A stretch of 42,038 nucleotides of DNA. Source: an uncultured Pseudomonadota bacterium (GTDB lineage Bacteria > Oederibacteriota > Muellerivitia > Muellerivitales > Muellerivitaceae). Below, one piece after another: positions 16,495 to 31,992 of this stretch. The notes beneath the pieces were generated by a model, which saw only the letters and a list, made by a program, of their open reading frames with translations, did no database searches and had not been told where the DNA came from. The translations under genes were made by a program, and so were the position numbers. Position 1 is the stretch's first letter; each line of letters starts with the position of its first letter. The DNA lies in contig CAWJKT010000016.1 in the NCBI GenBank assembly GCA_963843375.1, positions 1 through 42,038 on the forward strand, read 5' to 3'.

Positions 16495-17842
16495 TTGAAC
16501 GACAAGAATTTCATCGGGGATCAAAGATTGCGCGAAACCTTTAAAAGCCTCTCGATTTTCTCCGCAATGCTGTTGTTGTTGTTGCTTATTTCCACCGGTT
16601 GCGACGTGAATATCCCGGGTTGCGGGAAACGCTCCCTCCCTTTTTTTAGGCCCATTGCCCCGGCACAAGCCTTAAAAACAACTGTAAATACGCCCTCTCT
16701 TCCTCCTAATATCACTCCTTCTCAATCCTCAACCCCGACCTCTTCCACTGCACCATCAACATTATTAGCCAATCCCCCCTCCAAGCAACCGGCCCTTGAG
16801 TCATCCGTGGAAATGTCCATTTCAAAACCCAAGCCAACCGCTACAACGACCGCCACACCCACGGCTACCCCTCAAGAAGTTGAGAAATTTGCCTTTACTA
16901 CGATTGAACGAGGAAAACCCACTCTCTGGACCATGAATGTCGACGGTACGAACAGAGTCCGGGTGACGCCGATTGGAACCAGTTCCTGGTTTCCGCTTTG
17001 GTCTCCTAATGGAAGCCTCCTTGCCTTTCTTTCGGACATGGGGGATGGAAAAATGAACTTATATATCCTCAAAAAAGGTACCGTTGAAACAAAGCAAATC
17101 ACTTTTTTTTCGGATATGTCCTTTGCGGATGCCAGTAATTTAAAACCTCCTTTTTCCTGGTCTCCCCGTAGCGATGAAATTGTTTTTTATTACCACAACC
17201 AAATTTGGAAAATTGGTGTTGACTCTTATTTCCAAGAAAGCATCGTCATGGTAGATCCAAATTATTCCATTTCGGCAATTGAATGGGCTCCCCATCGCGA
17301 TAATCGGTATGTAGCCTATTTAGTAAAGAAAGGCGAAAATTATTTTGGTTTAAAACTGTCCAATCCTCGTTTAAAAGACGACTTAAGACTGGTGGATTCT
17401 TCCGTTCCCCTTTCGGATATTTCCTGGTCTTCGGATGCCCGGGATGTGGCTTATATATCGAATAACACCGTGATTTACTCCGCCTCGGCTCAGACTTCCC
17501 TTCCTAAAACCTTAGTGAACTTGCCCGGCCCCATTTTGGGACCGTTGGTGGCATTTTCACCCTCCGAAACCGGAACTCTTTTGATGGTTTTAGCCAAACA
17601 AGATCCAGTGGAATTAAAGTATCGCGTGGCAATTGTGGATAAATTTGCCACGGATGAGGATCCCGGCAGTTTAAAATACTTGACCGATCCGGGAGTGGAT
17701 TACGCCATTTGGTCGCCAAGCGGCAACAAAATCGCTTATCTCCAATCCGGTGAACTTTGGGTGATGGACGTTCCCTACCGGCGCTAACAAGACAAGAATT
17801 GCCGCAACTGGGATTGAATCTCCCAGTTGGTCGAAAAAGTGA
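16495..17842 (+). CDS. TolB-like (PD40-repeat) beta-propeller lipoprotein with Ser/Thr/Pro linker; one extra base near 17773
   Basis: Lipobox LISTGC and repeated P.WSP.G..(I/L)AF/Y units. Removing one C restores the C-terminus TGANKTRIAATGIESPSWSKK to TGA at 17842. Confidence 0.8.
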
Positions 17843-17850
17843 GCCAGAAA

Positions 17851-18891
17851 ATGAATCTTCAAGCTTTATCAAGGTTGTCTTTATTGTGGGTTTTCCTATT
17901 CCTTTTGGGCGCAGCTTTTACGACCGCATGCAAACCCAAAAAGGTGGAACTTCCCCCTCCGACCCCCATACCCACGCCTGTCGTTCCGCCCGGAAGCATT
18001 GTTTTTGTTCAAAGGGGCCATTTAGTTCGTTTGGATTTGGATTCGTCCCAAATCACGCCGTTAACCAGCGGTAAAAGCACCGAATGGTATCCCGCTTGTT
18101 CCCCCAAAGGCGATCAAGTGGTTTATTGGTCAAACGCAGTTGATCGGGATGATCATAATAAATCCGATACCGGCGTATACAACTTATGGAAAATCAATCT
18201 CGACGGTTCCAACCGGGTTCAACTCACCTTTGATGAAACCAATTCGCTGAAGAGTGCCGACCAAAACTTATTGGTCAACAACACTCCTTCTTGGTCTTCG
18301 GACGGTAAAAAAATCCTATACTGCGCCTCTGGGGACATTTGGATGATGGATTCGGATGGTTATAACCCCGAAACCCTTCTTCTAGGTCATTCCGCTCTTT
18401 GCCCGCAATTTTCTCCTGACGGGAAGTCCATCATTTTCATCAACAACATTGATGATGCCGTCTACAACATTTGGACCATGTCCGTTTCGGACAAGAGCCT
18501 GAAAAAATTGACAGCCTATACCGATTGGAATGTTGGCTCGCCTTCATTTTCAATGGATGGCAGCAAGATCCTTTTTAATCTTTACCGGTCGAACACAACC
18601 CAGGTTTATACGATCAACGCCAAGGATGGAGAAAACCCCGTTAACATCACCAATGACAATCGGAGTCTTTGCCCTAAATTCGCACAGAATGACAGGAAAA
18701 TTTTATATTGTTCCTACGGGACGGGTGAGGATGTGGCGCTGGATATTTTTATCGCCAACAGCAATGGCACCGAATCAAAAAGCTTGAATCTGGAAGGTGG
18801 ATCCTCCCCCAGTTGGGTGCCGGCCCGTGTTTTAACCGCGATTCCATCCATTCTTCCAACCGCGGCACTGCCTGCCCCCATGGGCAAATAA
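17851..18891 (+). CDS. TolB-like (PD40-repeat) beta-propeller lipoprotein
   Basis: Lipobox FTTAC. Repeats PACSPKGDQVVY, PSWSSDGKKILY, PQFSPDGKSIIF, PSFSMDGSKILF. An alternative GTG start at 17839 overlaps the upstream stop. Confidence 0.85.
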   Translation: MNLQALSRLSLLWVFLFLLGAAFTTACKPKKVELPPPTPIPTPVVPPGSIVFVQRGHLVRLDLDSSQITPLTSGKSTEWYPACSPKGDQVVYWSNAVDRDDHNKSDTGVYNLWKINLDGSNRVQLTFDETNSLKSADQNLLVNNTPSWSSDGKKILYCASGDIWMMDSDGYNPETLLLGHSALCPQFSPDGKSIIFINNIDDAVYNIWTMSVSDKSLKKLTAYTDWNVGSPSFSMDGSKILFNLYRSNTTQVYTINAKDGENPVNITNDNRSLCPKFAQNDRKILYCSYGTGEDVALDIFIANSNGTESKSLNLEGGSSPSWVPARVLTAIPSILPTAALPAPMGK

Positions 18892-20412: not shown

Positions 20413-23400
20413 TCAGCGAACGATGAGGACTTTGAAAATTTTAATCGTCTGGGAATTCCCCACTATGGCCTTCACCCGGATGTAATAAAGCCCATCGGAA
20501 ACGGGTATTCCATCCTTATCTTTCAAATCCCACGAGAGGAAAGTTTTTCCAGAAAGTGGTTGAGATCCCTCCATTACCTTGCGAAATGCAATTGTGAAAA
20601 CATCCCAAATGAGATTGGCGCCCGGTGGACTTTGGAAATCCAATGAAACCGGTCCCCCGCCTTCGATAGGATTGGGATAAGGTGGTCCAATTACCACTTC
20701 CGTCATGGCCGGGGTCGGAATGCCGAAGGGGGTAAGGCTAATCGTCGGCGTCAAAGTAGCCGTCGGGAGAGGAAGAGGCGGTGTCTGGGTGGGTGTAAGA
20801 GTGATACTGGAAGTAAAGGTTTCGGTCAGCGTGTTAGTGGCCGAACGGGTGGGACTGGAGGTTGGAGTCATTGTCGTGGTACTCGTAAGTGTCGCCGTGT
20901 TGGTGAAAATGGCAGAGGATGTCGGGGTGGAAGTGAGGCTATTCGTAGGGGTACCAGCAGGCGTCAAGGTGGGAGTGAGGCTCAAGGTCATAGTCGTCGT
21001 CGAGGTAAAAGTGAAAGTGGCTGTAGAGGTGGTCGTCATGGTTGGCGAGAAGGTCAGGGTAGGGGTAGAGGAGGCCGTAAACGTCGAGGTGACGGTGGGA
21101 CTGAAGGTGTTGGTGAAAACCGGATAAGTGTCCCCAATGATCTGGCTCGTAAACGTGGCCGTGGGCTGGGTTCCAGTGGCCGAGGGGGTCGAAGTCGCTG
21201 TGCCGGTTGCTGTGGCGGTAGGTAGTGTGCCCGTGGCCGTTGGAATCAAAGTCAGAGTCGCCGTGGGTGAAGGGGTGAAGGTTGGCGTTGACGAAAAGGT
21301 TGGAGTCATGGTGGCACACCCCCCCGTGTTAACTTCCACCGGCCCGAAACCCATGGTCACCAAAGTACTTTGATCGCTGCTTTCGACCAATCCGATTTCG
21401 AGTGGTGCGGTCAGGGTTACGGTCGCCGATCCCAAACTGGACCAAGTTCCAAGTTCTTCAATGTAGGCCGTGTAGGTATTGCCCGATTGGACTAGGGCAT
21501 AATCTATCGGCTGGCCAATGCCATGCAGGGATACCGCAACCGAAGGGACTGCCCCGGCGGTCCCACGGTAGGTAAGCTCGATATAATCCAAAAGTACCGT
21601 AGAGACCATCACAAAAGGAGCATCGGCTGAAAGACCCGAACGGATCATGAGACCCGTTTTATCATTCGTTGTAAAAGTGGAGGAGCAGGGAGAAGCGCAG
21701 GCATAGGATACGGCGGTAATTGCCCCATTGCCGCACAAAGGTTGCCAAAGAAAATTGAAAGCGTCCGTACCCGTGTTTAATTCGTTCCCGGAACCAGAGA
21801 CGTAATAGTTTGAGCCGTCAAAGAGGGCAGTTCCCGCGGCCGGAACCGCGCCGATATCCTGGTCCGTCCAGGGAGGAGGCGCTGGGCCCAAGGTGGCGGT
21901 CATCGTGGCAGTGGCGGTGGTGGTCGCCGTGGAAGTGGGACTGCCGGAGGTGGCGGTCGGGGTAAATGTTAGGGTAACAGTTGGGGTCATTGTGACGGTA
22001 GGGGTGAAGCTGTTTGTGAAAGTAGGTGTCACCGTGGCCGTTGGCTCGGAAACGTAAACCACGTTCGAACAGGAGGCCTCCATCCCGCCCTGGTTGTTGA
22101 TGGCATCCGCGCTGATGTAATAAGTTCCTGCGGAGGGGGGTGTCCACACCAGCGTGTAGGGCGAAGTGGTGGAGGTGCCCACATACAGGTCGTTGACCAT
22201 AAAATCGACTTGGCCTACCGTGCCACCCGTATCCGAGGCAAGGGCCGTGAATGTGATGGGCGTAGCCGAGGGAAAGTAGCTTCCGGTCAAAGGTGAGGAT
22301 ATTTGGACCGTGGGCAGTGGATAGGCGCCTGTATAGGGAGTGTTCGGGAAGTTCTGGTTGATCTCCAGAGCGTTGTCGGCCGCAGTGACAGAAGCAGGGT
22401 CAACCCCGGTGGGCTGTCCCATAAAATTCACTGCGGGATTGGAATAGTTCAATATCCAGTTCCCCGGCTGATAGGCCATGATAGTGATAAAAGTGGTGCC
22501 CCCCGAGGCAAAACGGTAACCATAGTTGAAGCCGTTTCCCGAAGGCACGTCATCGGTCTGGCGGTCGTGGTGGCATCCCATGTTATGGCCAACTTCGTGG
22601 GAAAAGGCGATGTCCGCATACGGATAATAACACACGGTCGCAAACCCCGGTAATTGCCCTACCCCGGCCACGATTCCTCCCCCAGTCGTCGTGGCGGCCG
22701 AACCTACGAAAAGCGAAACGTAGTTCGCGCCATAAGTGGCCATCCATGCGCCAAGCTGTGGAAAATAAGCGGCGTTGGTCAGGTTGCCCAGGTCGGTGAT
22801 GACGTCGCCCGTCTCGAGGTAGGTGACCGGCTGGGTAGCCACCAGTTCCATCTCAGCGGTTACCCCGCTGTTATAAAAGGCCATATTCATGCCGGCCCAA
22901 TCCATGTCTATCAGGGTTTCCAGGGCCTCCGCGCCGCCCGCATTTTCCGCGGCGAGAGCCGTGTAAAGCACCATGATCTGACTGACTTTAAGGGATTGAG
23001 AGTTTGGGCATCCACTCTGGGTAGCCTGGGGATAAAAAGTCGGAACGCCTTGTGAGGCGACCCATTCGGCACCGGTGGGACCCGCTTTCTCGGGTCCCCC
23101 GTCCAACAGCACCTGGCCCGGGGCGGGATTGGTTTCAGAAATAAGGTGGAGGCCATTCTGAAGGTAGCGCACCTCGAATTTGTTGTGTCCAGGGACCCAG
23201 ACATCAGCTTGGAGAATTCCATCACGATAAGCCATGATCACCCGCCCGGTCTCTTGTCCGGGGATCGATCCCCAGACCACCCATCCCCCTTTCGGTCGCA
23301 CCCGAAGACGTTCCACGCTCCACTCGACTTGAACATCGTCGAACAGATTCAACTTGAATCCTGGATTCCAGCCTGGATGCTTAAACCGGCTTGGTAATCC

Positions 23401-23652
23401 ATCCAAAAGCGTCCGATCAAATTGAACATAACCTTCTCGACGGATTTTGCTCGGCAACGCGACCGGGCCCGCGGGTACCGGCATGGAATGAAAAAGTCCG
23501 GTCTGTCCCCCGTTTCCAGGAGCAGCCTCGGTGAGGACCGGAATACATAAGAAGGTCATTGCCCATATCAGGGATATCCTGGAGGAAGAAGCAATCTCCG
23601 GAAAAAAAAATCGAATAAGACGAAGAATCATGTTCCTCTTTAAAGTGTCCAT
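20413..23652 (-). CDS. Secreted reprolysin-like (M12B-type) zinc metallopeptidase with Ig-like domain, beta-sandwich domain, Thr/Pro linkers and T9SS-like C-terminal domain
   Basis: Signal peptide, prodomain, HEVGHNMGCHH with Met-turn TIMAY, Big-like domain (ALASDTGGTVGQVDF..PYTLVW), WTDQDIG..KTGLMIR domain, C-terminal YPNP..GLYYIRV..KVLIVR. Confidence 0.85.
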   Translation of the reverse strand: MDTLKRNMILRLIRFFFPEIASSSRISLIWAMTFLCIPVLTEAAPGNGGQTGLFHSMPVPAGPVALPSKIRREGYVQFDRTLLDGLPSRFKHPGWNPGFKLNLFDDVQVEWSVERLRVRPKGGWVVWGSIPGQETGRVIMAYRDGILQADVWVPGHNKFEVRYLQNGLHLISETNPAPGQVLLDGGPEKAGPTGAEWVASQGVPTFYPQATQSGCPNSQSLKVSQIMVLYTALAAENAGGAEALETLIDMDWAGMNMAFYNSGVTAEMELVATQPVTYLETGDVITDLGNLTNAAYFPQLGAWMATYGANYVSLFVGSAATTTGGGIVAGVGQLPGFATVCYYPYADIAFSHEVGHNMGCHHDRQTDDVPSGNGFNYGYRFASGGTTFITIMAYQPGNWILNYSNPAVNFMGQPTGVDPASVTAADNALEINQNFPNTPYTGAYPLPTVQISSPLTGSYFPSATPITFTALASDTGGTVGQVDFMVNDLYVGTSTTSPYTLVWTPPSAGTYYISADAINNQGGMEASCSNVVYVSEPTATVTPTFTNSFTPTVTMTPTVTLTFTPTATSGSPTSTATTTATATMTATLGPAPPPWTDQDIGAVPAAGTALFDGSNYYVSGSGNELNTGTDAFNFLWQPLCGNGAITAVSYACASPCSSTFTTNDKTGLMIRSGLSADAPFVMVSTVLLDYIELTYRGTAGAVPSVAVSLHGIGQPIDYALVQSGNTYTAYIEELGTWSSLGSATVTLTAPLEIGLVESSDQSTLVTMGFGPVEVNTGGCATMTPTFSSTPTFTPSPTATLTLIPTATGTLPTATATGTATSTPSATGTQPTATFTSQIIGDTYPVFTNTFSPTVTSTFTASSTPTLTFSPTMTTTSTATFTFTSTTTMTLSLTPTLTPAGTPTNSLTSTPTSSAIFTNTATLTSTTTMTPTSSPTRSATNTLTETFTSSITLTPTQTPPLPLPTATLTPTISLTPFGIPTPAMTEVVIGPPYPNPIEGGGPVSLDFQSPPGANLIWDVFTIAFRKVMEGSQPLSGKTFLSWDLKDKDGIPVSDGLYYIRVKAIVGNSQTIKIFKVLIVR
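20705..21310 (-). repeat. Thr/Pro/Ser low-complexity coding stalk, (T-x)n and TPT repeats
   Basis: About 200 codons of TPT/TAT/TFT repeats. They generate the Val/Gly-rich antisense shadow ORFs. Confidence 0.85.
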
Positions 23653-23670
23653 ACCTTCGAGGCTCCTACG

Positions 23671-24582
23671 TTAAAGCTCGCTTAAAATATCCGCTAACTC
23701 TGCCTCGCTTTGGTAACCCGTCGCGTCAATGATTTCTTTTCCATCGAGGAAGAAAGCGGTTTGGGGAAGCCCGTAAGTATGACCACCGGGAGTGGTGGGT
23801 ACCGCATATTCGTTCAAAAGCGCTTCGTTTTCGTCGGCGTTCACCCGGACCACGATGACTTGACCGGCGTAATCACTGGCGAACTGAGTGACCACGGGAG
23901 AATAGATTGTGCAGGTCGCGCACCAGGATGCCCAAAACTCCAACACAACCGGCACCGTAGTATTGGCGAGGATCTCGCTGAAATTGGCAGTTGTCCCAAT
24001 CACTACGGTTCCAGGTGGAATGGCTGTGGGCGTCGCAGTGACCGTTGGGGTAGCGGTGAAAGTCGAGGTGTCGGTTGGCGTATGAGTGGGAGTTGTCGTT
24101 TTGGTTCCCGTATCAATGGGTGTGGAAGTGGAAAGACTCGTAGGAGTGTCGGTCAAGACAAAGGTAAAAGTTGCTGTTGGAGTAACCGTACATGTAAAGG
24201 TTTGGGTAAAAGGAATGGCAATGGCCGTGGAACTAGGGGTCAGGGTGGGCGGAGTGGAGGTGAAGGTGACGCTAGGCAAAGCAACCGTGGATGTAAAGGA
24301 GGCAGTTGGCGTGGGTGAAAATACCGGCGGGACATAAGCTGTAGAACTGGGAGAAGGGGTTCCCGTCGAAACCGTCACACTAACAGTCGAGGTGGAAGTC
24401 GCGATTGCAGAGGGCGTCGAAACGAGGGTGGCTGTCAATCCGGGGGTAGAGGAATTATTTGGACTCACGGGTGTTGGATCGAAAGGGCTGAGGGGTGAAG
24501 TTTGATAAGATTTTTGGCAGTTCATTCCACAAACAGCCAAGACGGTCCAAACGGTAATATAAAAAGCCTTCATGTATTTCAA
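23671..24582 (-). CDS. Putative lipoprotein: Thr/Pro stalk plus C-terminal thioredoxin domain (WCATC)
   Basis: AAGGA RBS before TTG, signal peptide with Cys (AVCGMNC), long T/P linker, VVLEFWASWCATC..VRVNADEN..LPQTAFFLDGK. Confidence 0.85.
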   Translation of the reverse strand: MKYMKAFYITVWTVLAVCGMNCQKSYQTSPLSPFDPTPVSPNNSSTPGLTATLVSTPSAIATSTSTVSVTVSTGTPSPSSTAYVPPVFSPTPTASFTSTVALPSVTFTSTPPTLTPSSTAIAIPFTQTFTCTVTPTATFTFVLTDTPTSLSTSTPIDTGTKTTTPTHTPTDTSTFTATPTVTATPTAIPPGTVVIGTTANFSEILANTTVPVVLEFWASWCATCTIYSPVVTQFASDYAGQVIVVRVNADENEALLNEYAVPTTPGGHTYGLPQTAFFLDGKEIIDATGYQSEAELADILSEL

Positions 24583-24637
24583 AATTGAGTCCTTTCGGTT
24601 GCCCCTGTTAAATCCATGGTTCTAGGGCAGTCACTTT

Positions 24638-24666
24638 TATAGTGACCAGAGAAGGGACTTTATTCC
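24638..24666 (-). promoter_or_regulatory. Candidate ECF sigma promoter, copy 1 (thioredoxin-peptidase operon)
   Basis: Minus strand GGAATAA-agtcccttctctggt-CACTATA (N15), 55 nt upstream of the start at 24582. Confidence 0.75.
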
Positions 24667-24750
24667 AACAATGCTTGATTTATCTTTGAGAAATGAACAA
24701 TTGAATAACCGTGTTCAAGAATTCCAACTGCCAACCTTGGACCCGGTTTT

Positions 24751-26127
24751 TCACGGGTGAACGGCCATGAAACAGGCCGTCCCTCCAAGACTGATGGAGG
24801 ACAGCGCGGTTGGCGGAGTAGTGGTGATATTAGCCTCGTAAAGGACTTGGGCGAAATAACCTGGAATATAAGCGGTAGACCCATCCTTTGATAACCAGTC
24901 GTAGTGGACGTTATCGGTTGTGCTGTCGAACATTAATTGGTTGACGTAACTGTAGGTGTCTGTTGCCGTATCCACGCTGAATTCCTCTAAATAAGTATCA
25001 CCATCGGAGGCTACCCAGAGAGTGGACCCGTTGGAAGAAAGGGTATTGCCCCGGAACCCGAATCCTGAACCTCCGGTGAAAGTGGTGACCGTTCCAAATG
25101 TTGAGGTATTAATAACCTGGATCCCTCCGGAACTCCACATTGAAAGGAAGGCCCGGGTTCCATCCGCCGAAACCGAAATTCCTTGGGGATTGCCGCCCGT
25201 GGTCAGTGTAATCTCCTGTTTCGTCGCAAATCCAGAGGAAGCCGGGTTGCTGTTGATGACGGCCACCAGCGAGGGACTGCCATAAGGGCCGCTCTCAGGC
25301 CACCACAGTTGGTTTCCATTCGGCGTAAATGCCGCCTCACCGATGAGACTTGTCGTGAAACCGGTGATATCCGCCACCACCTGCTGATAGTTGGGGCTGG
25401 AGGGTTGGATATTGAGAACTTCCATGCCACACCCGTCTGAGAAATAAGCGTAGGCTCCCGCAGGATCAATCCATACCATACCGACTGCGGTGCTGTCGAG
25501 GCGCAGATAGGTGACTTGGTTTTCATTGGAACTGGTTGGATCGGTATTGATGACGGCCAATCCGCTTAGACTTCCGCCGAAAATATTATTGGCGACGACG
25601 TAGAGCTCTTTCCCGTTCGGGGTGAAGGCCATGTTATTGATAGACGTGGCCTGGATGGGAATATTTAGGACGATGGCCCCGCTATTGATAGCCTGCACGT
25701 TAACCGTTGTGGAATTGGACACATAAACCGTTCCGGTTAGAGCCGAAGGGGTTCCTGAAACGCTGACGGGGGCAGTGGAAACACAGGCATTAAGGGGTGT
25801 TCCGGTGGGGGTCGCAGTGCCCGTGGATGTGATCGTTGGGCTTGCCGTAGGCGTTCCCGAGAAGGTTACGGTGGGCGTGAGCGTGGGGGTCGAACTGGGA
25901 ACAGGAGAGGTCGTCTTGGTCGGGCTGGGTGTGGACGTTCCGGTGGATGTGGGCGTTGGCGTAACAGTCTGGGTCGGACTGGACGTGGCCGTTCCTGAAA
26001 CCGTCCAGGTCAAGGTCGGCGTCGAAGGCGCTGGGGGCAAGGAAGGAAGGGGTCTTCGCTCGCAGCTCCATAAATCCATCATCACGAGAATCAAACCCGC
26101 GAAAAGAAAATTAAAAAATATTTTCAT
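24751..26127 (-). CDS. Putative lipoprotein: Thr/Pro stalk plus YncE-like beta-propeller
   Basis: GGAG RBS before ATG 26127, signal peptide ending LWSC. Blades MAFTPNGKELYV, AAFTPNGNQLWW, ISVSADGTRAFL, LSSNGSTLWV, LSKDGSTAYI. Confidence 0.8.
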   Translation of the reverse strand: MKIFFNFLFAGLILVMMDLWSCERRPLPSLPPAPSTPTLTWTVSGTATSSPTQTVTPTPTSTGTSTPSPTKTTSPVPSSTPTLTPTVTFSGTPTASPTITSTGTATPTGTPLNACVSTAPVSVSGTPSALTGTVYVSNSTTVNVQAINSGAIVLNIPIQATSINNMAFTPNGKELYVVANNIFGGSLSGLAVINTDPTSSNENQVTYLRLDSTAVGMVWIDPAGAYAYFSDGCGMEVLNIQPSSPNYQQVVADITGFTTSLIGEAAFTPNGNQLWWPESGPYGSPSLVAVINSNPASSGFATKQEITLTTGGNPQGISVSADGTRAFLSMWSSGGIQVINTSTFGTVTTFTGGSGFGFRGNTLSSNGSTLWVASDGDTYLEEFSVDTATDTYSYVNQLMFDSTTDNVHYDWLSKDGSTAYIPGYFAQVLYEANITTTPPTALSSISLGGTACFMAVHP

Positions 26128-26160
26128 GACCAGTCTCCGAATGTTTTTTCCCACCGTTGA

Positions 26161-26189
26161 TATAGTGACAAGCGGATGAGCTTTATTCC
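26161..26189 (-). promoter_or_regulatory. Candidate ECF sigma promoter, copy 2
   Basis: Minus strand GGAATAA-agctcatccgcttgt-CACTATA (N15), 33 nt upstream of ATG 26127. Confidence 0.75.
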
Positions 26190-26303
26190 CATTTCTCAAT
26201 AAGAAATCTTTTAAGAATAACTTCCCGTTAATCATATCCCCAAACAGGTGACCACCAGGGTTAAAACAAACTCGGGCTTAAGTGACAACAATGACTCCCG
26301 AAC

Positions 26304-26332
26304 TATAGTGATCGGCAAAACCCTTTTATTCC
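26304..26332 (-). promoter_or_regulatory. Candidate ECF sigma promoter, copy 3
   Basis: Minus strand GGAATAA-aagggttttgccgat-CACTATA (N15), 143 bp upstream of copy 2. Confidence 0.7.
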
Positions 26333-26481
26333 GTTTACTTTAAAAATATTCCACAATAATGTACGTTCTCAAAAACCATCCAACGATATAAAATATGGCC
26401 CCGTTAGCCATTTGATGCGGCGAAACACGACACTTTTAAAAAGGCCAAAACCATACCGGTTCGCCAAAAGGCTTGAACGCC

Positions 26482-26865
26482 ATGATTCTATTTGTGATTC
26501 GACAGCTTTTAAATCGGTCCTTATTCCTTTCCGGGCTTCTTTTCTTTCTCATCCTCACAAGCACTTCCCTTTCCTTTCAAACACCGACTGCTGGTTCCTG
26601 TTTTGTGTACCCTTCTCCCGCCACCGGCAGCTCAGTCTGGGTGGTTTACACTATGCCCCAGAACGGATCGGTGGAGGTGCGAATTTACAACGAAGCAGGG
26701 GATTTGGTTTTAGAGAGTACCGACCAGCAGGCAACCGGCGTCCAAGAAACGGGAATAAATATTTCTTACTTGCGCAACGGGGTCTATCTTTGCCAGGTCC
26801 TCCTAACGCCGGAGGGTGGATCGACTCAAGCCTTAAAGATCTTTGAGTTCTCGGTTGTGCGATGA
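26482..26865 (+). CDS. Small exported protein made of a signal peptide plus one T9SS-like C-terminal (sorting) domain
   Basis: Hydrophobic signal, then FVYPSPATG..VEVRIYNEAGDLV..LRNGVYLCQV..FSVVR, matching the type A CTD pattern YPNP..IY...G..V..GxY. Confidence 0.7.
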   Translation: MILFVIRQLLNRSLFLSGLLFFLILTSTSLSFQTPTAGSCFVYPSPATGSSVWVVYTMPQNGSVEVRIYNEAGDLVLESTDQQATGVQETGINISYLRNGVYLCQVLLTPEGGSTQALKIFEFSVVR

Positions 26866-28157
26866 AAGTCCAGTGGTGGAAAGGCATTCTAAGAATCCCA
26901 TGGTTAGTATTTCTTTATTCGCCCGTTCTTTCCTTTGCCGACCAAACCACCTACACCACTGCATTTATTCCCTATCCATTGGAAAGCCTGGACTATTCCC
27001 CCAGAGCCGAAGCCATGGGCTCGGCTTTTACTTCAGTCGAGGGCGACTCCGCTTGCCTCTTTTATAATCCAGCCGGGTTGGCGGGCGTTTTAAATCCGGA
27101 AATTTCTATCGTTCACCAATCTTGGCTCGCCAACCTCTCGCAAGAAAACTTGTCCGGAGCCCTTTCGATTGGAAAAGCGGGGACCCTGTCCTTCGGAGCC
27201 GATTACCTCAGCTACGGAACTTTGCAAGGCTATGACGCCAATGGCTTTTCCACCACCACCTACCAGCCCTTTCGCACCTCTCTCGTAATGGGTTGGGGAT
27301 GTTATCTTTTCCCTCGTTTCGCCATCGGATTCTCCCTGAGGGGACTAGACCAGTCTCTATTCACGGGAGTGGACACAATGGCTTCGGCGATCGGCATCGG
27401 ATTCCTTTGGCGCCCCTTACCCCGCTTGAACTTGGGAGGCTTTTACACTTTTCTTTATAGCGATGCCGAAGCGGACTTGGGCCAGCTCAAATGGGGCGCT
27501 TCCTATAAACTTCCTGTTTTTGGCAAGAGCTCCGCCCTTTTATCAGTGGATTTTTCCATGCCGCCCGACGGGGTTTACCAGATTCAATGCGGCGCGGAAC
27601 AGTCCATTTTCAACATCCTGACCTTCCGACTGGGTAATCAATGGGACCTGAAGGACAATGAAATTGCAGGATTTCGGGAATTCACAATGGGGTTGGGCCT
27701 GCATTGGAATGGACTGGACCTGGACGCAAGCTTTGTCCCGGATGGGGACTTGGGCTCCTCCCAAATGCTTGGCTTGACCTACCGTTTTCCTTCGGAAACA
27801 CCCCATCTCCCTCCCGCCGTTCCGCTTAATTTTATTCCCCCGTCGGAAATAACTCCCGCCGACAAGGCGCTGGATGTTAAGGTACAGTTCTCAAAAGGCC
27901 CGGGGATGGCGGCTCCCAGTCTCTCTCCCGAAACCCAGAAAGAGCTGGATATTCTGGGGAAACAAGTACAGGACCATCCCCAGGACGTCACGTCTTGGGC
28001 TCGGTTGGGAAGACTGTATTGGCTCTCCAACCAACCTGAGTATGCCGTTCAGTGTTTTGAGGAAATTCTCCGTCTTCAGCCTGGGGACGCTTCTTTAAAA
28101 GCCTGGTTGGATCGGTACCATCAACAACACCCCCCGCATTCCAAGTCCGGGGAATAA
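26862..28157 (+). CDS. PorV/PorQ (UPF0164/FadL-like) outer-membrane barrel with C-terminal TPR
   Basis: PRAEAMGSAFTSV.GD..LFYNPAGLA signature, amphipathic strands ending LGLTYRF, Pro linker, then TPR (SWARLGRLYW..AVQCFEEILRLQP). Confidence 0.8.
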   Translation: MKVQWWKGILRIPWLVFLYSPVLSFADQTTYTTAFIPYPLESLDYSPRAEAMGSAFTSVEGDSACLFYNPAGLAGVLNPEISIVHQSWLANLSQENLSGALSIGKAGTLSFGADYLSYGTLQGYDANGFSTTTYQPFRTSLVMGWGCYLFPRFAIGFSLRGLDQSLFTGVDTMASAIGIGFLWRPLPRLNLGGFYTFLYSDAEADLGQLKWGASYKLPVFGKSSALLSVDFSMPPDGVYQIQCGAEQSIFNILTFRLGNQWDLKDNEIAGFREFTMGLGLHWNGLDLDASFVPDGDLGSSQMLGLTYRFPSETPHLPPAVPLNFIPPSEITPADKALDVKVQFSKGPGMAAPSLSPETQKELDILGKQVQDHPQDVTSWARLGRLYWLSNQPEYAVQCFEEILRLQPGDASLKAWLDRYHQQHPPHSKSGE

Positions 28158-28179
28158 TTCGGGCAACTGAAACACTATA
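28151..28179 (+). promoter_or_regulatory. Candidate ECF sigma promoter, copy 4 (autoregulatory position)
   Basis: GGAATAA-ttcgggcaactgaaa-CACTATA (N15), 12 nt upstream of the ECF start. The TAA is also the stop codon of the PorV-like gene. Confidence 0.75.
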
Positions 28180-28191
28180 CAGAGGGAAACA

Positions 28192-28764
28192 TTGGCGGAC
28201 GAAAAGGAACTGGTCCAAAAAATTCTGGCGGGCGATCCGAAAGCCCAGGCCTTTTTCTACGCGGAAAACGCGCCCCGTCTTTATCCGGTTTGCGTCCACT
28301 TCCTGGGATACCAGGATCCGGACGCGGAGGATATTGTCCAGCAAACTTTTCTTATCGCCCTTCAGAAATTGAGGGCCTTTGAATTCCGGTCCAGCCTTTA
28401 CACCTGGCTGGATCACATTTGCGTGAACCTTTGCTATGAAAGATTGAGAAAAAGGAAAAGGGAGCTGGCGTCCCTGTCGGAGGACTTGGAAAAACTCACC
28501 CAGCCCCAGGCCGGATCATTGGACCACCAGCAAATGGTTGAGGATGAGAAAAAAAGAAGGCTTGAGATTTTGCGGAATCTCACCAAATCCATGAGCGAAA
28601 AATGCCGGGAGGTTCTGGTTATGAGGGATCAAAAAGGCGAAAGTTACATCGATATCGCTCGCAGCCTCAAGATTCCCATTGGGACCGTGATGTCCCAATT
28701 GGCCCGGTGCCGGAAAGCCCTTCGGCACATGATGGAAAATGAAATCAAGGGAGCCCATTCTTGA
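28192..28764 (+). CDS. ECF (sigma-70 group 4) RNA polymerase sigma factor
   Basis: Region 2 DAEDIVQQTF..FEFRSSLYTWL and region 4 SYIDIARSLKIPIGTVMSQLAR. GAGGG RBS before TTG. Confidence 0.93.
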   Translation: MADEKELVQKILAGDPKAQAFFYAENAPRLYPVCVHFLGYQDPDAEDIVQQTFLIALQKLRAFEFRSSLYTWLDHICVNLCYERLRKRKRELASLSEDLEKLTQPQAGSLDHQQMVEDEKKRRLEILRNLTKSMSEKCREVLVMRDQKGESYIDIARSLKIPIGTVMSQLARCRKALRHMMENEIKGAHS

Positions 28765-29552
28765 ACTTGATCGAGGAATATTTTAAAAGAGATTTGACGG
28801 AAACCGAGGAACAAGAACTCGCGGTTTGGCTGGAATCCCATCCGGAAGATTCGGTTCGTTTCGCCCAGATGATGAAAAGTTTTTATGAACAAACAGGCCT
28901 TCCCGAACCCGCCTGGCCCCATTCCCCTGATCCCACTCAGGTTTCCGCGCCTCTGGTGAAATGGCTGATCCCCCTGGTTTTACTTTTTATGGCTTTCGGT
29001 GTCTACCTTTGTCGGTCCAAAATCACCGCCCTTTTCCAACCTTCCTCCGCACCGGTCATTGAAACGGCCCCGGCCCCATCGATTGAGGTCCCGGTTCAAA
29101 AGCAGAATCCAATTCAAGAGGAAGTGCCTGTTCCCACTTCCATCCCGGAAGAAACTCCGGTAAAAAAGCCTTTACCCGTCCCCACTCCCTTCCCCAACAA
29201 TCCCAAACCGGTAGCGATTCTTCCTCTTTTACCTATTCCTCCCCTCGCTCCCCTTCCAACCGCCCGACCTACGGAACCCGTTTCAACAGGAAGGATATAC
29301 GAACGTCTTTCAGTAATGGTCAACTTGCCCCAAGGCGGGCTAGCCACGGTGCGAGTCGTCGACAGCCAGGACAACGATATCCGGCTTCTTTACGCCGGTA
29401 TATTGCCGGCGGGCCAGCAAACTTTCACCTGGGATGGGAAAACGGCCCAAGGGGCTTTAGCTCCCCCAGGCCACTACTTCGTGGAAATAAAATCCGGAGC
29501 GGATGTTTTGCGCCAGGAAATCCATTTGCAACAGGACTCATCGGCACATTAA
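28761..29552 (+). CDS. Putative transmembrane anti-sigma factor with Pro-rich linker and C-terminal FlgD-Ig-like domain
   Basis: Overlaps the ECF stop. N-terminal helical ASD-like segment (IEEYFKRDLTETEEQELAVWL), one TM, Pro linker, then VRVVD..IRLL..G.QTFTWDGK...G..APPGHYFVEI. Confidence 0.75.
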   Translation: MNLIEEYFKRDLTETEEQELAVWLESHPEDSVRFAQMMKSFYEQTGLPEPAWPHSPDPTQVSAPLVKWLIPLVLLFMAFGVYLCRSKITALFQPSSAPVIETAPAPSIEVPVQKQNPIQEEVPVPTSIPEETPVKKPLPVPTPFPNNPKPVAILPLLPIPPLAPLPTARPTEPVSTGRIYERLSVMVNLPQGGLATVRVVDSQDNDIRLLYAGILPAGQQTFTWDGKTAQGALAPPGHYFVEIKSGADVLRQEIHLQQDSSAH

Positions 29553-29693
29553 TTGGGTAGATGGCAATGATCCCAAGGCCCTTTGTTCATCCCGTTTTTT
29601 CCGGATCAGTAACAGCTGGCATTTTAACGCCCTTTCATCATGGAATAACTTGGCTCCCCGCTTCGGTTCACAGGTTATCAAGCTTTCATCAGG

Positions 29694-31823
29694 CTAACGG
29701 TCGACAAGAACTTTTAGGATTGTGGTTTGATTGACGGGACCGGACACCCTGACCTTTAAATAATAAAGTCCGTTGGCCACTGGCCTTTGCCATTGATCCT
29801 CCAAATTCCAAACCAAGTTGAAATTATTTCCCGGAATTAGATTTGACCCGTTCAAAACCTTCCGAAAGACCGTCGTAAAGACACTCCATTCGATCGTCGA
29901 GCCTGTGGGAGACTGGACCTGAATGGTCACTGGTGCTGGGCCATAAACCGGATTGGGATAAACCGGACCAATCACAACACCTCTTGAATTGGGGGTTAAA
30001 GTAGGTGTGGAAGTAAAGCTCAAAGAGGGGCTTTGTATCGGTGAATTTGTTGCGGTCTCGGTCATTGTAACGGTAGAACTCAGGGTAGGCGAATTGGTCG
30101 GCGTGGAAAAGCCGGTCGGGGTCGATGTTAGTGTCACCGTAGCCGTAGGAGTCGAACTCGGCATTACGGTCGCGGTAGGGGTGGGCGTGAAACTATTTGT
30201 CTGAGTCAAGGTTCCAGTCGCTGTAAGTGTTGCGGTACCAGTCATGGTTGATGTCGGGGTGTTGGTTGCGGTTTTGCTAGCTGTCGGGGTTTGGGTTAAA
30301 GAAGCGGTAGAGGTAGCTGTCCTGGACGGGCTGTCCGTAGGGGTGAAGGTGACCGTTGGAGTTCCGGTAAACGTAGGGGTACCCGTCGCGGTATAAGTCG
30401 GAGTATTGGTTGAACTTCCGGGTTGGGGAATAATCTGAATCGCGTTAATTTGGGCGTTGTTTTCACTGCCGTTAGTGAAAACCAGGACGATCTGGCCGTT
30501 GGCGTTGGGCGCAATACTATTGTAAACCTCGTTGACCGCGATAAATTCCCCGCCTGCGTTAGCAAAAATATCGAAATTTGTGGCTTCGGTGGTCCCGTTT
30601 ATGGAATAGTTGAATTCCCTGTCGCCGGATGCCGTAAAGTAATCCTCCGCGAATTTCAGGGTCACCTGGTAATTGGAACCGGTCGGCACGCTGAAAGCAT
30701 ATGTCACTCCCGATCCAGTAGCAGTGTTCAGGTAACGGTTGTACTGGTAAAGCTGCGAGTCCGAGGTGTTGGAAACGGTAGTGGCGGCGTAGGCCGGCAG
30801 GCCGTTCTCAAAGCCGAAATTCGTGTCCGCCAGCCAAGTAATGCCACTACTCGGGCTCACGTAATTGCTGCTATCCCCGCAGGCCACGTACCATGAGCTT
30901 TGAACCACCGGAGTGGGTGTGGGTGATCCCTGCTGGTAAACCCTGACATAGTCCACCAGCATCGTCACCGGAAAAACGGTGGTTGCGTTCGGCGCTCCCG
31001 TGCCGGCATCACCCCCGATGGCCATATTCAAAATAATATATTCCGGCTGGATGTAGGGCCATCCTCCCGATTCGTTGTCCGTTTCATACAATTGCCCGTC
31101 CACAAAAAACTGGACCATGCTCGCGGGGCTCGAGGTGCTCAACGCCGCAAAGGTATGGTAATCCGTGTTATAGCCAATCGTGCCGGGTCCCACCAAGTTG
31201 TATTGGCTTGTTTCACTCACCTCCCCCGCTGTACCGAAATGCAGGGAACCCATGTTGATGTTCAGTTGGGACGGCGTGGCCCCAGCCCCGAAGTTTTCCA
31301 TGATGTCGGTTTCGCCACAGGCGGGCCATCCCACTGTTGAATAATTGGACCCCAAAGTCCAAAAAGCCGGCCAGGTTCCCACTTCATATGGCATGTGGAC
31401 ACGGGCGACATAATAGGTATTAGCCTGGTTGGCTCCATATTGCTGCAAGCCGGAGGTATCGATACGAGCTGAATGGTAGTCCCCCGCCATGCCGTTATTT
31501 CCACCCGGATCGGTGGCGATAATCGCCAAAGAGGACCCGTCCACCGCGTTGGGATCGGACACAATCTGGCAATTGGTCACTCCATAAGAGGCGCTGTAAT
31601 ACTCCAGTTCGGCGTTCCCTTCCCCGCTGCTGTTGGTTTCGATATTCCAATTGGCCGGGTTTGGAAGGTTTCCCGCCGTCCCATTAAACTCGTCGCTCCA
31701 GGCAAGACCATAACCTGGCGGAACGCCGTCCCAACTGCCCGCCCAAATTTCGCCTTTGAAAGTGAGGAAAAGCAGAAAGGAAAAACCTAATATTTTTGTT
31801 TTTTTGGAGAGGAACAATTTCAC
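29694..31823 (-). CDS. Secreted GH16 (laminarinase-like) glycoside hydrolase with malectin domain, Thr/Pro stalk and T9SS-like C-terminal domain
   Basis: WSDEFNG, GTWPAFWTLG, WPACGETDIME (ExDxxE), malectin YQVTLKFAEDYF..GDREFN..FDI, C-terminal YPNP..GLYYLKV..KVLVDR. GAGGT RBS before GTG 31823. Confidence 0.9.
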   Translation of the reverse strand: MKLFLSKKTKILGFSFLLFLTFKGEIWAGSWDGVPPGYGLAWSDEFNGTAGNLPNPANWNIETNSSGEGNAELEYYSASYGVTNCQIVSDPNAVDGSSLAIIATDPGGNNGMAGDYHSARIDTSGLQQYGANQANTYYVARVHMPYEVGTWPAFWTLGSNYSTVGWPACGETDIMENFGAGATPSQLNINMGSLHFGTAGEVSETSQYNLVGPGTIGYNTDYHTFAALSTSSPASMVQFFVDGQLYETDNESGGWPYIQPEYIILNMAIGGDAGTGAPNATTVFPVTMLVDYVRVYQQGSPTPTPVVQSSWYVACGDSSNYVSPSSGITWLADTNFGFENGLPAYAATTVSNTSDSQLYQYNRYLNTATGSGVTYAFSVPTGSNYQVTLKFAEDYFTASGDREFNYSINGTTEATNFDIFANAGGEFIAVNEVYNSIAPNANGQIVLVFTNGSENNAQINAIQIIPQPGSSTNTPTYTATGTPTFTGTPTVTFTPTDSPSRTATSTASLTQTPTASKTATNTPTSTMTGTATLTATGTLTQTNSFTPTPTATVMPSSTPTATVTLTSTPTGFSTPTNSPTLSSTVTMTETATNSPIQSPSLSFTSTPTLTPNSRGVVIGPVYPNPVYGPAPVTIQVQSPTGSTIEWSVFTTVFRKVLNGSNLIPGNNFNLVWNLEDQWQRPVANGLYYLKVRVSGPVNQTTILKVLVDR
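29990..30420 (-). repeat. Thr/Pro/Ser low-complexity coding stalk
   Basis: TPT/TAT repeats between the malectin domain and the C-terminal domain. Confidence 0.85.
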
Positions 31824-31992
31824 TGGTAACCTCGACAAAGGATTTTATCAAATTCTTCGCCGGAGGAGCTCAGTGGAATTCATCGGGCGCCCAAAAGAGG
31901 GGACGCAGGAGCCGAGGTCTAAGAATAGAGGAATAACCCAAAGGAAAAGGTTCCGCCTTAAATTTCCAAGACGGGCATTTTAATTTAAAAGT

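Follow-up and report, generated by a model that had tools for sequence, protein, structure and literature searches.

A conserved operon of a CTD protein, a PorV-like barrel, an ECF sigma factor and an anti-sigma candidate as a probable TonB-independent cell-surface signaling chain

Here, we describe an operon of four genes at positions 26482–29552 of contig CAWJKT010000016.1 (assembly GCA_963843375.1) from an uncultured bacterium of the family Muellerivitaceae; the whole stretch of 42,038 nucleotides that was analyzed is called the window. The genes encode a protein with a type IX secretion system (T9SS) C-terminal domain (CTD), a PorV-like outer-membrane barrel, an extracytoplasmic function (ECF) sigma factor, and an anti-sigma candidate, referred to below as A, B, C, and D, respectively. 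They form a conserved unit that probably acts as a TonB-independent signaling chain from the cell surface. The unit has a CTD type of its own, the tail of its barrel co-occurs with the anti-sigma candidate, and its sigma gene is preceded by a distinctive promoter motif.

All four genes lie on the forward strand. Protein A (26482–26865, with an ATG start and an alternative TTG start at 26473), assigned from profiles and the open reading frame (ORF), consists of a signal-peptide-like stretch and a CTD only. B (26862–28157), assigned by profile and model, is a 14-strand barrel of the PorV/PorQ family with a C-terminal extension made of a Pro-rich linker, an orphan β-strand motif, and tetratricopeptide repeats (TPRs). 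C (28192–28764) matches Sigma70_r2 and Sigma70_r4_2, and D (28761–29552) is assigned from a FlgD_ig match and its structural model. A and B as well as C and D overlap by 4 nt, and the B–C gap is 34 nt. These ORFs and spacings agree with the original prediction, made from the DNA alone, of four co-oriented genes overlapping or 34 bp apart; its calls of a CTD-only protein, a PorV-like barrel with TPRs, and an ECF sigma factor are likewise borne out by matches to Por_Secre_tail, NF033709 (with weak TPR matches), and the two sigma domains. Public DNA contigs from all four runs examined (two studies) have no substitutions across 23500–30000, the sole difference being an insertion in a single contig, outside the operon.

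With the anti-sigma profile, 99 genomes of the phylum were searched; 100 regions around the matches listed were taken together with the paralogous loci of the host, with 461 weaker matches set aside. A unit was called complete when a barrel and a CTD protein accompanied a sigma/anti-sigma pair at no more than 5.2 kb, all encoded on one strand. Barrel and CTD protein were found beside 80 of 100 distinct sigma/anti-sigma pairs, and beside 60 of the 70 with long flanks. Three gene orders occur among the complete units: sigma–anti-sigma–cargo–barrel (CDAB, 35), the order observed here (ABCD, 27), and sigma–anti-sigma–barrel–cargo (CDBA, 18). Complete units are present in 28 of the 31 genomes of the family, with one to six per genome; the refutation named beforehand, a gene order conserved in no relative, thus did not come true, there being 80 copies. 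Among 1.84 billion representatives, the profile matched 199 clusters at E ≤ 1e-30. The closest relatives of sigma factor C include a record labeled candidate division FCPU426. At two loci (L160:1019-2081 and L174:6798-8003), related ECF sigma genes are followed by a single-domain response regulator and no anti-sigma gene, with a barrel of the subfamily about 2–3 kb away.

The host genome (4.05 Mb, 80% complete, with several frameshifts) contains four copies of the module, on contigs C16 (the window), C12, C11, and C6. The anti-sigma gene of the C11 copy is frameshifted (L012:3653-4363). An apparent sigma/anti-sigma fusion on C6 (L013:5445-7403) was rejected, as its junction differs by a one-base indel from a same-genus ortholog with separate genes.

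Protein A has a T9SS type A CTD by both applicable profiles (Por_Secre_tail, PF18962, 37 bits with a cut-off of 27; TIGR04183, 32 bits with a cut-off of 23); its signal peptide is judged from a hydrophobic stretch only. About 70 proteins of the host have a CTD-like C terminus, and the module CTDs stand apart from them: a profile derived from foreign copies of the module CTD (71 sequences) gives 117–128 bits for the three that the host has, and 41 for the next best protein. Moreover, all 20 further matches of this CTD type, fetched independently, adjoin a barrel of the same subfamily. Other families have this type more often, with 14 matches in one genome, and with no sigma factor nearby, and hence its restriction to the module is a trait of the family. 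A search of PDB sequences with the CTD profile gave a weak match only (E 0.1), to a T9SS CTD. On the host contigs C4, C14, C15, and C28, several further genes for PorV-family barrels directly follow CTD genes whose CTDs are of separate flavors; NF033709 match segments in the genome number 24.

Most copies of A are longer than the one described here. The commonest heads among 63 long versions scanned are PA14+CBM9 and NHL/SBBP/Kelch propellers; lectin+DUF11, pectate lyase+malectin, and IgGFc heads also occur, and several versions have no head match. Seventeen copies from 15 genomes, including this one, are CTD-only in the ABCD order, and 15 of them group as a single clade when the sigma factors are placed in a quick tree. 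A cysteine pair, which the A protein described here has as well, is present in 11 of 16 CTD-only A proteins and in none of 56 long ones. Redox sensing stays a lead only, since, despite this pair, the thioredoxin lipoprotein gene found near the operon adjoins no other module.

The barrel exceeds the cut-off of the PorV/PorQ family (NF033709, 98.5 bits against 90) and falls far below that of the equivalog for PorV proper, the general T9SS shuttle (NF033710, 34 bits against 250). Its AlphaFold model (pLDDT 89.7) has a 14-strand barrel plugged at its N terminus and continues through a linker without order into four TPR helices; the weak TPR profile matches cover residues 367–413. Fold searches, which covered mainly this barrel and the immunoglobulin-like (Ig) domain of D, ranked PorV first in Foldseek (E 5.6e-12), followed by the FadL family (3.5e-9). 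Two elements of the tail are of particular relevance. An orphan strand motif, V339-x-V-x-F343 (27876–27890, + strand), is a candidate contact with the anti-sigma factor; it is kept in 71 of 78 barrels, with F343 in 94%, and is unstructured in the monomer model. The modeled TPR helices (about residues 356–422; 27927–28127, + strand) follow it and would lie in the periplasm.

The association of this tail with the anti-sigma gene was assessed by listing barrels on the barrel sequence alone (114 matches in 99 genomes) and only then classifying their tails and neighbors. A strand+TPR tail with an anti-sigma gene nearby was observed for 73 of the 114 barrels, and the same tail without an anti-sigma gene in full flanks for none. 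The 24 barrels lacking an anti-sigma gene have no tail or an OmpA-like, LysM, FN3, or plain TPR tail; the rest are one contig-cut strand tail with an anti-sigma gene and 16 barrels with flanks too short. At one locus of another family (L124:6358-7401), the gene immediately following a sigma/anti-sigma pair encodes a non-PorV protein that terminates in the same strand+TPR tail.

That L124 protein is glycine-rich and helical, with a terminal β-hairpin as well as the tail. By eye, OmpA-like, LysM-like, and FN3-like tails also end barrels of the same subfamily at the loci L167, L168, L170, L173, L174, L177, and L178 in other families; tails of these kinds suggest a cargo–barrel pair anchored to the cell wall.

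The model of D comprises three confident N-terminal helices (residues 3–44), a membrane helix (66–87), a Pro-rich linker, and a six-strand Ig sandwich of the FlgD type (183–256); a hydrophobic segment exceeds a threshold chosen for this analysis in 68 of 84 homologs. An ECF sigma factor with an adjacent one-pass anti-sigma candidate, in a host that also encodes RseP, is the arrangement of the FecA/FecR/FecI type, and D is predicted to inhibit the sigma factor. The Ig domain matches FlgD_ig (36.9 bits) and not Por_Secre_tail (PF18962); its closest structure is FlgD (Z 9.1, root-mean-square deviation 1.9, 71 aligned residues), tied with the C-terminal domain of PorU at Z 8.6. No FecR domain was matched in D at E ≤ 0.1. 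The domain lacks the first strand (YPxP) of the module CTD and is thus not a T9SS type A CTD, the relation between the two being distant (hhalign probability 86% over 45 columns). The earlier label of a CTD-like anti-sigma factor should accordingly be replaced by that of an FlgD-type Ig fold, and the idea that this domain is an export tag binding the barrel as cargo does finds no support, since the domain lacks the first CTD strand and is anchored in the membrane. The lone strand of the barrel could possibly fill the place of that missing strand in the Ig fold of D.

Regions upstream of the sigma genes share a motif consisting of GGAATA(A/T), a spacer of 12–13 nt, and a CACTA-like box. Of 97 regions, 94 of which served to train the matrix, 82 exceed 10 bits, compared with 5 on the reverse strand and 4 after shuffling; the three held-out regions, from the host, score 17.7–21.4. 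In the window, a predicted ECF promoter of the form GGAATA-N16-CACTATA precedes the sigma gene (28151–28179, + strand), which predicts autoregulation. Three more such sites are situated on the minus strand and are directed off the operon. Two of them (26304–26332 and 26161–26189) precede a gene for a lipoprotein with a Thr-rich stalk and a YncE/lactonase-like β-propeller (24751–26127, minus strand; ATG at 26127 likely, longest ORF to 26235). The third (24638–24666) precedes a gene for a lipoprotein with a Thr-rich stalk and a thioredoxin (CxxC) domain (23671–24582, minus strand). Both lipoproteins are predicted targets, and the M12 protease gene closely 3′ of the thioredoxin gene may be co-transcribed. 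The variant GGAATA-N16-CACTATA, which was picked after the hits were seen, occurs at four sites in the 4.05 Mb genome, all within 24638–28179, with 0.00 expected in the window; for a relaxed variant, 24 sites were counted in the 177 kb that surround CTD-only modules vs. 1 in 870 kb around other modules. A sigma-70 scan was uninformative, with 8 sites against 4.3 ± 2.4 expected.

This layout is conserved among CTD-only modules. A divergently transcribed lipoprotein gene, lipoproteins being called by a rule specific to this analysis, adjoins 15 of 16 CTD-only modules, none of 10 long-cargo ABCD modules, and 2 of 49 sigma-first modules. A promoter is directed at the divergent lipoprotein gene in 13 of the 16 CTD-only modules and toward A–B in none. 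Elsewhere in the host genome, the motif precedes 6 of 69 CTD genes, compared with 9 of 1855 other long ORFs; the six encode proteins of the GH30 (three), GH62, GH28, and malectin (one each) kinds. Glycan hydrolases as targets, so predicted from sequence, would suit those paralogs that have PA14-CBM9 or lectin heads. Upstream of the SprA gene and of most CTD genes, no promoter of the module type was detected.

At least 34 lipoproteins predicted in the host have a Pro/Ser-rich start and a Thr-rich stalk, a possible class of surface lipoproteins with a shared export motif. In one relative, a tandem repeat array is located between the module and the divergent lipoprotein gene (L109:2045-3086).

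The inventory of core T9SS genes that had been proposed as a check covered SprA, GldM/PorM, and PorU. A collinear SprA homolog of about 2000 amino acids is present in 28 of the 31 family genomes and in all 17 near-complete ones, in every case under the TIGR04189 cut-off. The GldM/PorM (PF12080) and C25/PorU (PF01364) profiles had no match in any of the 31 genomes, the control genomes being equally silent. Away from the operon, the host genome also encodes six matches to TonB-dependent receptors in addition to RseP. Its SprA homolog (contig C15:110180-115226, L195) is split by frameshifts and is intact in relatives; a LytS/LytTR-like pair precedes the locus and a large CTD protein follows it.

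We propose that A would be exported through the SprA homolog and would dock, by analogy with PorV cargo, from the outside with the PorV-like barrel encoded next to it, whose periplasmic strand+TPR tail would hold the Ig domain of D. A change at the surface would then set the ECF sigma factor free, presumably by proteolysis given the presence of RseP, and the freed sigma factor is predicted to transcribe its own gene, along with the divergent lipoprotein genes of the copy described here. The paralogous copies would sense polysaccharides, because their A proteins carry PA14+CBM9, lectin, pectate-lyase+malectin, or propeller domains and their predicted targets are secreted glycan hydrolases. For the CTD-only copy, which lacks a sensor domain, the input is most likely the status of the envelope, of export, or of disulfides, or else a lipoprotein-bound ligand. 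A fuller version of this scheme is offered tentatively, as one that is less likely than not: interchangeable sensors, exported by a motor-less T9SS, would be clipped by their private CTD to a PorV-like barrel dedicated to them and would signal without TonB through a tail strand that completes the Ig fold, the paralogs being the counterpart, in diderms, of clostridial biomass sensing and the CTD-only set a monitor of export or surface-lipoprotein status. The original prediction of a trans-envelope signaling or export-monitoring module is supported in part: the conserved unit and the co-occurrence of the periplasmic tail with the anti-sigma gene are as expected for trans-envelope signaling. Export monitoring may apply to the CTD-only copy, but in most copies A has ligand-binding domains, and the view that the flanking CTD genes are module cargo is not supported.

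Several observations weigh against a signaling chain through the barrel. Structural alignment with VIA-align gives a tie between PorV (Z 30.4, root-mean-square deviation 3.9, 276 aligned) and FadL (30.0, 2.9, 258), and no TonB-like energy source is evident for signaling via a plugged barrel. Covariation between barrel and Ig domain, calculated from 78 pairs (about 52 effective sequences), gave no region-specific signal. The split between tails with and without an anti-sigma gene does not amount to 97 independent trials because it closely tracks the family boundary, tail and anti-sigma gene both being nearly restricted to a single family; within the family, just one tail-less barrel has full flanks, and PorV-like barrels with plain TPR tails occur without any anti-sigma gene, as do the FadLs of Treponema (PMC8407342). 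This confounding is softened by a quick midpoint-rooted barrel tree, in which the tailed barrels do not group together but are separated by lineages without a tail, and by the L124 protein, which has the same tail. The overlap of training and scored regions tempers the promoter counts. Furthermore, 7 of the 70 well-flanked sigma/anti-sigma pairs have neither a barrel nor a CTD protein within 5.2 kb, two of them having both slightly beyond that distance, and outside the family two pairs were seen, in one genome, neither adjoining a PorV barrel. Since some pairs have no barrel beside them, the anti-sigma factor may function without one.

A rival account needs co-regulation only, with barrel and CTD protein as a cargo–anchor pair kept next to the sigma/anti-sigma genes by shared regulation, the Ig domain of D sensing the periplasm alone, and the tail binding some other partner. 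Cargo and barrel pairs of the same subfamily without any sigma factor in many families speak for it, as do the sigma/anti-sigma pairs without a nearby barrel and the missing covariation signal. We consider it unlikely nonetheless, as the strand+TPR tail is seen only with the anti-sigma gene, even when moved onto a different protein with it, and the linkage survives three gene orders. Nor does sigma control explain the linkage of A and B, because no CTD-only module of the 16 has an ECF promoter toward these genes. Still less probable is export monitoring by mimicry, a variant of the original prediction, in which the Ig domain of D would be a tethered export tag, grabbed or competed for by the SprA/PorV machinery, so that secretion flux would set sigma activity. 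The distant relation of this domain to the module CTD, its similarity to the PorU C-terminal domain, and a CTD-only protein without a sensor domain, as expected for a pure reporter, would all suit such a mechanism. It is at odds with a domain that has no YPxP strand and no Por_Secre_tail match and is nearest to FlgD, with the ligand-binding domains and predicted glycanase targets of most paralogs, and with the scarcity of module-type promoters before CTD genes (6/69) and their absence before the SprA gene.

We regard as very improbable that B is a FadL-type transporter of a small hydrophobic molecule, with the sigma factor responding to the imported compound. The NPA motif, the 14-strand fold, and structural scores for FadL, TodX, and CymD that tie with PorV are compatible with it, and FadL-TPR proteins of Treponema have been described as transporters (PMC8407342). 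Nevertheless, the family profile is PorV/PorQ, Foldseek puts PorV first, and barrels of the subfamily are coupled to CTD protein genes whether a sigma factor is present or not.

Signaling through the barrel, the reading we prefer, invites comparison with known systems. The unit resembles FecA-FecR-FecI, PupB-PupR, and HasR-HasS in its outer-membrane barrel, adjacent ECF sigma factor, and RseP in the host, and in a one-pass anti-sigma factor that has three helices on the cytoplasmic side and a domain in the periplasm (PMC9249621). In contrast to these, its receptor is a 14-strand PorV/FadL-fold barrel that is not TonB-dependent, the candidate signaling part is a C-terminal strand+TPR tail instead of an N-terminal signaling domain, the anti-sigma candidate has an FlgD-type Ig domain and no FecR, and the candidate sensor is a CTD protein encoded separately. 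The initial analogy to FecA-FecR-FecI thus holds in the sense of working alike, because the unit is conserved and the tail co-occurs with the anti-sigma gene, and fails for the receptor and FecR themselves. The PorA-PorV-PorY/PorX-SigP pathway of Porphyromonas gingivalis likewise places a small PorV-bound CTD protein upstream of an ECF sigma factor, but uses a two-component relay with an unknown periplasmic link and PorV as general shuttle (PMC7712824), whereas the module has a co-encoded anti-sigma candidate, a dedicated tailed barrel, and several paralogous sets per genome. Cognate pairs of PorP-SprF with type B CTDs also combine a cargo gene with its own barrel and a barrel-specific CTD type; the module differs in that its CTD is type A-like and its barrel belongs to the PorV family, and no regulatory link is described for type B in the part of the source compared (PMC12618676).

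Clostridial sigma-I/RsgI systems share paralogous sigma/anti-sigma pairs, variable sugar-binding domains including PA14, and control of glycanases, but have the sensor on the anti-sigma factor in a one-membrane cell (PMC6852018, PMC6582324). In the module, the sugar-binding domains of the paralogs are on A and not on D, which sets it apart from this type; sensing would fall to a protein of its own, exported past the outer membrane, and the sigma factor is a standard ECF one. TP0548, TP0859, and TP0865 of Treponema pallidum are FadL-fold barrels with a periplasmic TPR extension (PMC8407342), and BamG is a FadL-fold barrel serving as a docking platform for a surface lipoprotein (PMC12611786), with no sigma, anti-sigma, or CTD partner in the descriptions compared. 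PMC7031533 was also among the literature compared. The main text of the 2019 ECF re-classification, as available, has no mention of FlgD or PorV (10.1101/2019.12.11.873521), and no description of the module was found in the literature searched, most subscription papers and the supplementary tables of ECF groups being outside its scope. The module is a real, conserved, and apparently undescribed variant of trans-envelope sigma signaling.

The outer-membrane-to-sigma chains covered in the review sections compared all use TonB-dependent receptors (PMC9249621). A chain made of T9SS cargo and a PorV-like barrel, if true, would be a second solution by which a cell with two membranes senses large polymers in its surroundings, and would be so in a lineage that is not part of Bacteroidota. 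For the PorA-SigP pathway, the route by which the PorV-bound CTD protein passes its signal inward is an open point (PMC7712824), to which the module offers a concrete, testable answer. It also supplies orthogonal sets of sigma factors and promoters, with predicted regulons, for assays in laboratory hosts.

The immediate surroundings of the operon match the original description, of CTD cargo on both flanks, on one side only. The convergent downstream gene for a GH16/malectin protein (29694–31838) has a CTD, whereas both direct upstream neighbors are the lipoprotein genes, without CTD; the nearest upstream CTD gene, for the M12 protease (20413–23652), is 2.8 kb from the operon. Both flanking CTD proteins have long Thr-rich stalks and a CTD of the bulk type, not of the module type. 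They were rejected as cognate cargo of the module for this reason, and neither gene has a promoter of its own among the top-scoring CTD genes. Farther upstream, at 16495–18891 of the window, there is a pair of adjoining genes for TolB-like (PD40) propellers.

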